Of a stretch of 64,000 nucleotides of DNA, positions 48,427 through 56,197 are shown piece by piece (position 1 is the stretch's first letter; each line of letters begins with the position of its first letter). The notes under the pieces are model-generated. The model made no database searches. It saw only the letters and a list, made by a program, of their open reading frames with translations, and was not told the DNA's origin. Both the position numbers and the translations under genes were made by a program. Source of the stretch: Candidatus Woesearchaeota archaeon (GTDB taxonomy: Archaea; Nanobdellota; Nanobdellia; Woesearchaeales; GW2011-AR4); NCBI GenBank assembly GCA_016180235.1, contig JACPBQ010000004.1, positions 303,674-367,673 on the forward strand. Direction: 5' to 3'.

Positions 48427-48810
48427 TTATTCTATTATTATCAAAACATCGCCTTTGTTGACTATATCATTCTTTTTTACTTTTATTTCCTTGATTTTTC
48501 CGGCTTTAGGAGCGGTTATGTTGTTTTCCATCTTCATTGCTATCAGTTTTATCAAAGTGTCTCCTTCTTTTACGCTTTGCCCTTCTTTCACGCTTACCTC
48601 GTATACTGTTCCCGGCAACGGAGAAGTTATTGTTCCTGTGGCTGATTCAGCGTGCTTTTGCTTTAAGGTTTCAAAAATAGCTGCTTTTGAATGTCCTGTT
48701 TCCACTTCATAGACATCCCCGGCGCAGTGTATAAGGACCCTTCCGTCCTCGGTTTCCTCCACTTTTACATGGTATTCCTGGCCGTCGACATTGATGGTTA
48801 ATTCTTCCAT
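48427..48810 (-). CDS. Biotin carboxyl carrier protein (biotinyl domain)
   Basis: The biotinylation motif IAMKMEN lies in a C-terminal lipoyl/biotinyl fold (PLPGTVYEVSVKEGQSVKEGD). Confidence 0.85.
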   Translation of the reverse strand: MEELTINVDGQEYHVKVEETEDGRVLIHCAGDVYEVETGHSKAAIFETLKQKHAESATGTITSPLPGTVYEVSVKEGQSVKEGDTLIKLIAMKMENNITAPKAGKIKEIKVKKNDIVNKGDVLIIIE

Positions 48811-48841
48811 TGTTGAAAAGGATATTTTAATAAAAATAATC

Positions 48842-49014
48842 CCTTGAATTTAGGCTCGCCACATTACGGGCTCGCATCATTGGAATGGATTTTTATCCAA
48901 CCGCCCACAATACGGGGCGTTTGTGATGGCATTTAGTGCCGCGACGTTATGCTCGCGGCTGTGAACTATTCCAGCGCAATGATGCGCCGGCGTATTGCCC
49001 GGCGCCTAAATATG
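48842..49014. repeat. GC-rich hairpin-module array, copy 1 (four modules, 7-nt terminal inverted repeat tttaggc/gcctaaa)
   Basis: Modules lie at 48848-48875, 48901-48919 (5-bp stem), 48931-48959 (7-bp stem gccgcga/tcgcggc) and 48984-49011 (7-bp stem gcgccgg/ccggcgc). Loops are related to CGTWWTG / ACAWTACG. An inverted copy lies at 56022-56153. Confidence 0.75.
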
Positions 49015-49053
49015 CCTGGAATTATTATTGTTTTTTATATCTCTAAAAAAATC

Positions 49054-50553
49054 CTATAAAGGCATATTGCCGTGCTTTTTTGCAGGCCGTTTTTCCCTCT
49101 TTGCCATCAGCATTTCCAGGCAGCTTATGAGGGTTTTTCTCGTGTCCTTCTCCTCTGCTATAATGTCAACCCTGCCGTGCTTTGCCGCATCATAGGGGTT
49201 AAGGAATTTTTCCTTGTACTCTTCTATTTTCTGCTTTTTTACCTTTTCAGCGTCTTTTCCCTGCAGTTCTTTCCTGTGTATGATATTAACTGCCTGCTCT
49301 GCTCCCATTACAGCGATTTCAGCATCAGGCCAGGCTATGACCCTGTCGTATCCCATCTCTTTGGAGACTAAGGCTATGTATGCACCACCGTATGCTTTTC
49401 TCATCACTAATGAGATTTTAGGGACTGTTGCTTCTGAGTAAGCATACAGCACTTTTGCTCCGTGCCTTATGATGCCGCTATGCTCCTGGTCCACTCCGGG
49501 AAGGTAGCCTGTAACATCAACCAGATTTATTATCGGAATATTGAAGCTGTCACAGAATCTTACGAACCTTGCAATCTTGTCTGATGAGTTGATATCCAAG
49601 CATCCGGCCAATACGCTTGGCTGTGTAGCCACTATGCCCACTGTATTGCTGTTTAATCTTGCCAATCCTATTACTGCGTTTTGCGCGTATAACTGCTGTA
49701 TCTCAAGGAAAGTGTTTTTATCCATAATTTCCTCTATTGCCTGCTTTATGTCATAGACTTTTTTAGGGTCTTTTGGGACTATCTTTGCCAAATTATTGTT
49801 TTGCCTCTCAGGCTTGTCATTCGTGCTTATGAAATTGGGGTTTTCCAGATTGTTCTGCGGCAGATAGCTTAACAGCAATTTTATCAGCTGGAAGCAGTCT
49901 TTTTCATTTTCTGTTATGAAATGGGCTACTCCTGACTTTTCGTTATGGACTAAAGGCCCTCCTAAACCTTCAAAATCTATCTTTTCCCCTGTAACTGACT
50001 TTATCACATCCGGGCCTGTTATGAACATATTGCTGATCTTTTTTGTCATGAAGATGAAGTCAGTTAAAGCCGGGGAGTAGACTGCTATTCCTGCGCATGG
50101 GCCTAAAATAACTGAGATTTGAGGTATAACTCCAGATGCTAAAGTGTTGTTTTTGAATATCCTTCCACCAGAGTCTAAAGCATGTATTCCTTCCTGGATT
50201 CTTGCTCCTCCGCTGTCAAATAATCCTATGATTGGGCATCCTGTCTTTAATGCATGCTCCTGGAGCTTTGCTATTTTTTCGTTGTGCATCTCTCCCATAG
50301 AGCCTCCCATGAAAGTGAAATCCTGGGCGAAAATGGAGATTTGTTTTCCGCTTATTTTTCCATGGCCTGTTATGACTCCGTCTCCAGGCTGCTTTTTTTC
50401 CTGTAAATCGTAGTTTATTGAGCTTAATTCAGCTAACTGGCCTAATTCTGTAAAAGTGCCCTTATCCAAAAGCAGATCTATCCTTTCCCTTGCTGTCAAT
50501 TTGCCCTTGTCGTGCTGGGCCTTTGCAGCTTCCTTGCCGTTATTTTTTGCCAT
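49054..50553 (-). CDS. Acyl-CoA carboxylase carboxyltransferase subunit (PccB/AccD5-like)
   Basis: The start is taken at MAKNNGKEAAK (ORF track extends to 50637). KLTARERIDLLLD, GGARIQEG and the crotonase-fold duplication length (~500 aa) support the call. Confidence 0.9.
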   Translation of the reverse strand: MAKNNGKEAAKAQHDKGKLTARERIDLLLDKGTFTELGQLAELSSINYDLQEKKQPGDGVITGHGKISGKQISIFAQDFTFMGGSMGEMHNEKIAKLQEHALKTGCPIIGLFDSGGARIQEGIHALDSGGRIFKNNTLASGVIPQISVILGPCAGIAVYSPALTDFIFMTKKISNMFITGPDVIKSVTGEKIDFEGLGGPLVHNEKSGVAHFITENEKDCFQLIKLLLSYLPQNNLENPNFISTNDKPERQNNNLAKIVPKDPKKVYDIKQAIEEIMDKNTFLEIQQLYAQNAVIGLARLNSNTVGIVATQPSVLAGCLDINSSDKIARFVRFCDSFNIPIINLVDVTGYLPGVDQEHSGIIRHGAKVLYAYSEATVPKISLVMRKAYGGAYIALVSKEMGYDRVIAWPDAEIAVMGAEQAVNIIHRKELQGKDAEKVKKQKIEEYKEKFLNPYDAAKHGRVDIIAEEKDTRKTLISCLEMLMAKREKRPAKKHGNMPL

Positions 50554-50739
50554 ATACTTGATTTGAATAGACATCAAGGTTAAGAAGGAGTGTTTAAAAA
50601 GCTTGTGGGAAAGAGGAGAAGAGGGAAAAGGGCGCATAACTACCTTTTTGCGAATATTTTATGTTTGGAAAAAGTATGTTATGAGAACTTTTCCCAAGGC
50701 ATGGCAGTGTGTGCGGCTTATGATTTACCGAAAGATTTA

Positions 50740-55966: not shown

Positions 55967-56021
55967 AAAAGCTAAGAATTGTGTTCAGAATATAAAATTT
56001 TACTAAAATTTCAATCCTTGA

Positions 56022-56153
56022 GTATTTAGGCGCCAACAATACGTTGGCGCATTCATCGCTCAGGAACTTTGCCCACCCGCCACAATTGGGCGGGGTGTGA
56101 AGATTACATTTCAATGCTGCGAGCCCGTAATGTGGTGAGCCTAGAATTTAAGG
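56022..56153. repeat. GC-rich hairpin-module array, copy 2 (three modules, inverted relative to copy 1)
   Basis: The reverse complement aligns with 48842-49014 minus one module. Hairpins are 56029-56049 (gcgccaa/ttggcgc) and 56075-56093 (cccgcc/ggcggg). The end block gcgagcccgtaatgtggtgagcctag lies at 56118-56143. Confidence 0.75.
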
Positions 56154-56197
56154 TATGATATTATTACTATCTAGACTCTTATTATCTTTTCCGCAAT

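Follow-up and report, generated by a model that had tools for sequence, protein, structure and literature searches.

The biology of REP, BIME and REPIN elements has been worked out in bacteria, and these repeats are among the closest comparisons for the element described here. Like them, it is built from GC-rich imperfect palindromes of 22-35 nt whose 5' foot carries a short conserved tag (TAGGC in this case, which contains TAG); like them, it belongs to an extragenic, multi-copy family of composite mosaics in which units alternate in orientation and inverted pairs form a larger hairpin; and, again like them, the family has sub-families with complementary stem changes, persists for long periods at the same sites, and is often found inside operons. 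It differs in having an archaeal host, in its tag, which is YTAGGC rather than GTAG (or CGTC), in its loops of 7-8 nt with a CAWTRC motif, and in that the two ends of the full element are consistently different from each other (A and B, below). For bacterial phyla, there is a catalogue of REP super-families (PMC3733652). MITEs, including those of archaea, are also similar, in that they are short, non-coding and intergenic, have imperfect terminal inverted repeats, and are patchily distributed with empty sites. In a large MITE census, a Woesearchaeal genome ranks among the most MITE-dense of archaea (PMC11602168), so such repeats in DPANN archaea are not wholly unreported; the author of an earlier note on this DNA was not aware of any there. 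Specific to this family are the TAGGC tag, the A/B asymmetry, inversion in place between species, modules nested within loops, and a 1-Mb genome in which no matching transposase was found.

The CT-BCCP element

The window, by which we mean the whole stretch of 64,000 nt analysed here, comes from a Candidatus Woesearchaeota genome of 1.04 Mb in nine contigs that is about 81% complete (G000); its congener is referred to as G001. A detail of the contigs of G000 may be noted in passing: the 99 nt at C9:436740-436838 and C2:1-99 are identical, and the two contigs therefore join end to end. Within the window, the earlier note had described a GC-rich array of hairpin modules between the genes for the carboxyltransferase (CT) and the biotin carboxyl carrier protein (BCCP), the latter being followed by BioY. 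This array is real and not a product of chance. The four modules and the tttaggc/gcctaaa termini can be read directly in the sequence (Table 1), modules 3 and 4 do have perfect 7-bp stems and 8-nt loops (CGTTATGC and CGTATTGC, respectively), and the island stands out from AT-rich DNA as described, with a GC fraction of 0.51-0.58 between 48850 and 48999; the flanks have 0.34-0.37, and the genome as a whole 0.396. Two details require revision. The termini that were taken as the bounds of the element are inverted, but its true extent is larger, at about 48828-49031, with AATAATCCC and GGAATTATT as outer inverted cores. Modules 1 and 3, which were called direct copies, have the ATTTAG tag in common, but the loop of module 3 is inverted, such that the loop motif CAWWACG has one orientation in modules 1 and 2 and the opposite orientation in modules 3 and 4.

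The ends of the element are imperfect terminal inverted repeats of ~58 nt, each with a TAGGC-tagged hairpin, and both follow a common frame of AATAATTCC, ~8 nt, TAGGC, a hairpin and GCATCATTGG. The hairpin of the A end has the stem GCTCGCC/GGCTCGC, which includes a conserved T.C/C.T internal loop, and the loop ACATTACG; in the hairpin of the B end, GCGCCGG-CGTATTGC-CCGGCGC, the stem is fully paired. Across the family, the A end reads AATAATTCC-N8-TAGGCTCG-hairpin-CTCGCATCATTGG, and the B end shares this frame, but its stem is fully paired. Full-length copies carry one to three GC-rich hairpins between their ends, with loops that keep the CAWTRC motif; those of the CT-BCCP copy are hairpin X and unit Y, and unit Y recurs, in inverted position, in the copy at C9:435976-436175. 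The predicted fold, which is the same for either strand, consists of a closing helix, TTTAGGC/GCCTAAA, that encloses the A hairpin, a 9-bp helix (GCATCATTG/CAATGATGC) around X and Y, and the B hairpin.

Table 1. Positions of the element, its parts, the neighbouring genes and related features. Numbers without a contig name are positions in the window.
Feature	Position	Strand	Details
CT gene	49054-50637	-	527 aa; PF01039 (Pfam); transcriptionally upstream of the element
BCCP gene	48427-48810	-	127 aa; PF00364 (Pfam); downstream of the element
Spacer, CT stop codon to BCCP start codon	48811-49053	.	243 nt; both genes on the minus strand; from open reading frames
A7 run	49045-49051	+	T7 in the mRNA, directly after the CT stop codon
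Module 1	48848-48875		atttaggctcgccacattacgggctcgc; read in sequence
Module 2	48901-48919		ccgcccacaatacggggcg; read in sequence
Module 3	48931-48959		atttagtgccgcgacgttatgctcgcggc; read in sequence
Module 4	48984-49011		gcgccggcgtattgcccggcgcctaaat; read in sequence
Left terminus	48849-48855		tttaggc
Right terminus	49003-49009		gcctaaa
A-type end (left terminal inverted repeat)	48828-48885	+	Covariance model R1, 70.8 bits
A end, core	48835-48843		AATAATCCC
A end, tag	48851-48855		TAGGC
A end, hairpin	48854-48875		
A end, motif	48874-48883		GCATCATTGG
Inner hairpin X	48902-48919	+	CGCCC-ACAATACG-GGGCG; homologous X units elsewhere have covarying stems
Inner unit Y	48931-48965	+	ATTTAG tag, hairpin GCCGCGA-CGTTATGC-TCGCGGC (48938-48959), then TGTGAA
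B-type end (right terminal inverted repeat)	48974-49031	-	R1, 59.2 bits, minus strand
B end, motif	48977-48985		CAATGATGC
B end, hairpin	48984-49005		
B end, tag	49004-49008		GCCTA
B end, core	49018-49026		GGAATTATT
Second full-length copy	56004-56166	-	B end 56004-56060 (+), A end 56109-56166 (-), one inner hairpin
Module Z, loci in G000 (among others)	C1:88280, C9:177145, C2:14673, C2:59240, C5:166381, C6:4236, C6:85151, C6:117176, C9:220915, C9:370051		

A dispersed family at inserted sites

A genome-wide census of the module, which the earlier note had suggested, was made by blastn of the genome, then with an nhmmer profile, and then with a covariance model of the end (R1). It found 17 ends at about 13 loci in G000, and nhmmer and the covariance model together found 13 ends in the congener; such a number of loci per genome is at the low end for REP families. 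The alternative outcome named in the same note, of only two copies and a match in Rfam, was not what we found, since the family is dispersed and has no Rfam match. Among the other genomes of the host's taxonomic family, 10 of 68 have one to three ends, while a DNA search of 16 genomes of other families found no copy. The end pattern is also present on 17 metagenome contigs. The relatives are MAGs that bear the label Candidatus Woesearchaeota or Nanoarchaeota. When viral contigs were scanned twice by pattern, no viral carriers were revealed. A match in the gammaproteobacterium Psychrosphaera algicola was rejected; it has neither the stem nor the flanking motifs, and ~0.3 such matches are expected by chance.

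Every copy is intergenic and nearly fills its spacer, in co-directional, divergent and convergent contexts; the second full-length copy in the window, for example, occupies a divergent spacer, with a minus-strand gene on one side and a plus-strand gene on the other. All nine full-length copies have one A end and one B end in inverted orientation, with inner units in either orientation. Matches to the model in inverted orientation lie 146-251 nt apart, with the outer cores AATAATYCC and GGRATTATT, and the full-length copies compared are non-coding and roughly 150-250 nt long. In short forms, what follows the A end is either an X-type hairpin, or (G/T)(T/A)AGAAC with a hairpin after it. The tag is (T/C/A)TAGGC, with no G before TAG in A and B ends; some second hairpins carry GTAGAAC. 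Two of these properties set the family apart from MITEs, namely the long (~58 nt) inverted repeats, each with its own covarying hairpin, and the short forms with one end only. G000 also has other hairpin-rich repeats, found as pairs of 150-170 nt with 97-98% identity (C1:86200-86366 and C1:79947-80111; C1:71623-71772 and C5:70476-70624; C6:4192-4353 and C9:369934-370094), and it thus carries several small repeat families besides the TAGGC one.

In 10 relatives, -1 to 33 nt separate the CT stop codon from the BCCP start codon (e.g. taaaaATG), as compared with 243 nt in G000, and it is for this reason that we regard the CT-BCCP element as an insertion. The corresponding spacer is about 170 nt in G001, where it holds a short form with its A end in the same position, 145 nt in G004 (with a related tagged unit), 217 nt in G007 (with a B-like end) and 106 nt in G012. 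All of the expanded junctions fall in one clade of a tree of the CT and BCCP proteins, and the tight junctions of G008 (2 nt) and G006 (13 nt) fall within that clade, which implies either several gains, or gains together with clean losses. As a separate observation, the reading frame of the CT gene of G001 (L012, the orthologue of window 49054-50637) shifts ~110 codons before its end, reflecting either an assembly error or a pseudogene.

A second junction has a similar history. At C5:11046-11326, between genes encoding 763 aa and 723 aa (ATPase/membrane-protein), four genomes from other genera have a spacer of no more than 1 nt; the two species of this genus, both with an A...B element, have spacers of 281 and 333 nt. 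Orthologues of this junction (L099-L114) have unrelated insertions of 64-363 nt in different genera, and all keep AAAAAAGAGGTGA just before the ATG, a sequence that resembles a Shine-Dalgarno motif although the genes of this genome mostly look leaderless. Three sites that have the element in G001 are element-free in G000, with other, unrelated sequence there instead. By contrast, for five of the eight G001 copies whose site could be placed in G000, the site is also filled in G000, with flanks only about 78-86% identical. Such orthologous retention despite diverged flanks indicates that transposition is rare or old; the long retention of copies could reflect a host function. We inspected the ends of four copies by eye and saw no direct repeat, in AT-rich flanks where the exact termini are uncertain; if real, the lack of a duplication would be a further difference from MITEs.

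Covarying hairpins and rearranged copies

The hairpins of the ends are constrained as structures. We assessed covariation in 55 aligned ends, 46 of type A and nine of type B. For the inner three stem pairs, in an alignment that was fitted to the model and so favours the structure, the counts are GC45/CG9, CG33/GC19 and CG43/GC4/UA3/AU1/UG1, and 1-2 of 55 cells are unpaired. In the same alignment, the covariation score is 0.274 as compared with 0.059 for shuffles, with none of 500 shuffles scoring as high, and it is above those of all slid controls. Compensatory swaps are also visible between orthologous copies in plain alignments. Moreover, two positions that are T.C/C.T in the 46 A ends are G-C/C-G in the nine B ends. 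Second hairpins are nearly all perfect GC stems of 6-7 bp that differ in sequence, with loops such as CATTGC, CAATAT, ACATTACG and ACAATACG. Pairs other than Watson-Crick are too few for a wobble strand bias to distinguish RNA from DNA. Judging from these patterns in the sequence, covarying stems next to a tag and loops that stay constant point to a hairpin that would be read by a protein as a single strand, rather than to a double-stranded operator.

Copies of the element have also been rearranged. The G000 copy at C5:11119-11256 is 91% identical to the reverse of its orthologue in G001 (L033:1398-1539), with flanks that are collinear at 90-93%; the element must therefore have been flipped in place or re-inserted in the opposite direction. 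Similarly, the inner X-Y segment of the copy at C9:435976-436175 is inverted relative to the CT-BCCP copy and two other copies. Over 91 nt, the copies at C5:11 and C5:17 have 94.5% identity in their A-plus-X parts, and in plain alignments these paralogues are closer to each other than to their own orthologues, which indicates sequence exchange between copies. Lastly, a long imperfect hairpin with conserved mismatches, GTGAATTGYGAG...CTCGCATCTCAC (module Z), occurs at at least 11 loci. It is nested within loops, both in A units and in a second hairpin, and at one orthologous locus one genome has it while two others lack it.

Candidate enzymes, rival readings and meaning

We searched for transposases of the Y1, TnpB, DDE_Tnp_1 (IS4/5) and DDE_3 (IS630) families. 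Neither genome of the genus has TnpB, DDE_Tnp_1 or DDE_3, and a comparison of G000 with itself found no repeat that was >600 bp or of IS size. Y1 transposases are found in 39 of the 70 genomes of the family. The one in G000 (C9:194467-194928) lies outside the window, so the earlier remark that the window has no Y1 gene holds; a RAYT, for which the earlier note proposed a search, is not what this gene encodes, with scores of 111 bits for IS200 and 31.8 bits for RAYT (cut-off 80). The Y1 gene of G001, which is not syntenic with that of G000, scores 78.5 bits for IS200 and 20.6 bits for RAYT, against the same RAYT cut-off of 80. Both genes are thus IS200-type, and no RAYT was found in G000 or G001. 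Together with the tag and the low copy number, the missing RAYT link is the part of the proposed REP/BIME likeness that fails; the short GC-rich palindromes, their alternating orientation, the operon spacer and the dispersed extragenic family all bear it out. Since the genome is about 81% complete, a partner enzyme could be missing from the assembly.

Among 13 Y1 loci, none has an element unit beside it that matches the model at E below 3, and so no Y1 gene is flanked by units as in REP systems, whose repeats are mobilised by RAYT Y1 transposases. The presence of Y1 genes does not track that of the element (eight of 12 element-bearing genomes have a Y1 gene, versus 39 of 70 overall). We rejected the word TAGGGCTCGC beside the G001 Y1 gene as a link to the element because it occurs at chance frequency (2 seen versus 2.3 expected). 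G000 has a solo IS200-type element at C9:194429-195079, with the end hairpins TTTGGGC-TTTA-GCCCAAA and CCCCGCAC-TTTA-GTGCGGGG, and the IS200 end hairpins of G000 and G006 are different from, and unrelated to, the element units. Nor did we find an autonomous IS with the same ends as the element, as would be expected for MITEs. There are nonetheless likenesses to IS200/IS605 miniatures: the hairpins are constrained as single strands, no duplication was visible in the copies inspected, short forms have two hairpins on one strand, and the one transposase that turned up in the genus is an IS200-type TnpA. On the other side, besides the unrelated hairpins of the resident IS200, the full-length elements have inverted ends, which IS200/IS605 miniatures, with their subterminal hairpins and single-strand transposition, lack. 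CATTAC, the commonest A-loop word, abuts the left end of IS200 in G000 and G006, and the G006 copy is inserted next to the 3' end of a tRNA; coincidence is estimated at roughly 2-10%, and we treat CATTAC as a lead only to a connection with A units.

The family is inserted, multi-copy, bounded by inverted repeats, constrained as hairpins and recombining, and we consider it probable that it represents a non-autonomous, mobile, hairpin-built palindromic repeat similar to REP/BIME elements and MITEs. A different reading, which we judge distinctly unlikely, is that the copies are small structured RNA genes or cis-acting RNA elements, such as protein-binding hairpin RNAs or sites of mRNA processing or stabilisation, with the tag and loops as protein-contact boxes and the variable stems as structural parts. 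Strong covariation and conserved loops would fit this, as would the fixed order of short forms (A hairpin, ~15-nt linker, (G/T)(T/A)AGAAC and second hairpin), the copies kept at orthologous sites across species, and the folding of the 243-nt spacer, which on the minus (mRNA) strand is significantly more stable than dinucleotide shuffles (z = -4.4). However, the fold is equally good on both strands (z = -4.05 on the plus strand; none of 200 shuffles was as stable on either), the orientation of copies to genes is variable, with one orthologue flipped, which argues against a strand-specific cis-RNA, and module composition varies by gain, loss and inversion of whole units. No copy examined has a match in Rfam: at permissive thresholds, the best E for the CT-BCCP element was 0.75, far below the gathering score, and 12 other copies gave none at E <=0.1. 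A tRNA scan found none. Genome-wide, the peak of TATA-like words is at -32 to -24 relative to start codons, in keeping with leaderless mRNAs. The AT-rich box that is conserved in the ends lies only about 12-19 nt ahead of TAGGC, too near for this TATA spacing and hence in the wrong place for starting an RNA at the tag, and we rejected on these grounds the idea of a promoter plus an RNA gene.

The element may also be thought of as a domesticated spacer with a host function, either as a two-way terminator or insulator that donates a promoter, or as an array for a chromosome-structuring protein; we find this at least as doubtful as an RNA function. In its favour are the persistence of copies at the same junctions in two species, a two-fold symmetric fold that works in both directions, the T7 run after the CT stop codon, which is a candidate archaeal terminator upstream of the element, and an AT-rich box (TTTTTATTAAAATA) at -26 to -13 of the BCCP ATG, within the outer flank of the element. 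Archaeal termination, however, needs oligo-T and not hairpins, and of 13 ends only 8 have a run of T4 or longer just outside the element, nothing unusual for spacers rich in AT. Most relatives, moreover, run the same operons with element-free spacers of 0-10 nt, implying that no such host function is required. On the supporting side, host roles of this kind have been reported for bacterial REP/BIME elements (PMC3733652). Far less credible is a recombination site like the attC sites between integron gene cassettes. The imperfect inverted repeat, the conservation of structure rather than sequence and the location between co-oriented genes would all be in keeping with attC, and the TTTAGGC/GCCTAAA ends resemble the attC core, GTTAGGC/GCCTAAC. 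The core words are reversed, though (RYYYAAC...GTTRRRY in attC, as against TTTAGGC first and GCCTAAA last here), the flanking genes are operon partners conserved across the family rather than cassettes, and copies are found in divergent and convergent spacers as well.

We therefore return to the mobile, REP/BIME- and MITE-like repeat. In this scenario, an element would have inserted into a once-tight CT-BCCP operon junction in an ancestor of this Woesearchaeota genus. Its hairpins would act as extruded single strands, either of DNA during replication or transposition, or of RNA, and would be recognised by a protein, by analogy with the way HUH/Y1 enzymes recognise REP units and IS200/IS605 ends. 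An enzyme of that sort, working in trans, could have spread the units, and recombination between inverted ends could have flipped and homogenised copies. The CT-BCCP copy would then be a passenger in the operon. Elements that split tight operons must affect transcription of the genes they separate. The AT-rich outer flanks of the CT-BCCP copy sit where a CT terminator and a promoter for a leaderless BCCP mRNA would be needed and, given the T7 run and the AT-rich box, transcription of the split operon may now rely on a terminator and a promoter located within the element or next to it.

Tagged, structurally constrained hairpin repeats in genome-reduced DPANN archaea indicate that the same style of element arises or persists even where nearly every spacer is a few bases. 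For annotation, they are a warning that GC islands of this kind should not be read as locus-specific riboswitches or regulators of neighbouring genes. Given that no matching transposase was found, they also raise the question of which enzyme handles single-stranded hairpins in these cells. One answer, which is bolder and rather unlikely, is that TAGGC units are the substrate of a RAYT-free archaeal counterpart of the REPIN-RAYT system, in which extruded hairpins would be acted upon in trans, by an IS200-type TnpA or by a single-strand nuclease that has so far escaped recognition, with the result that units move, elements flip and modules become nested. If this is true, hairpin replicators would exist in DPANN archaea as an independent and long-lived population.
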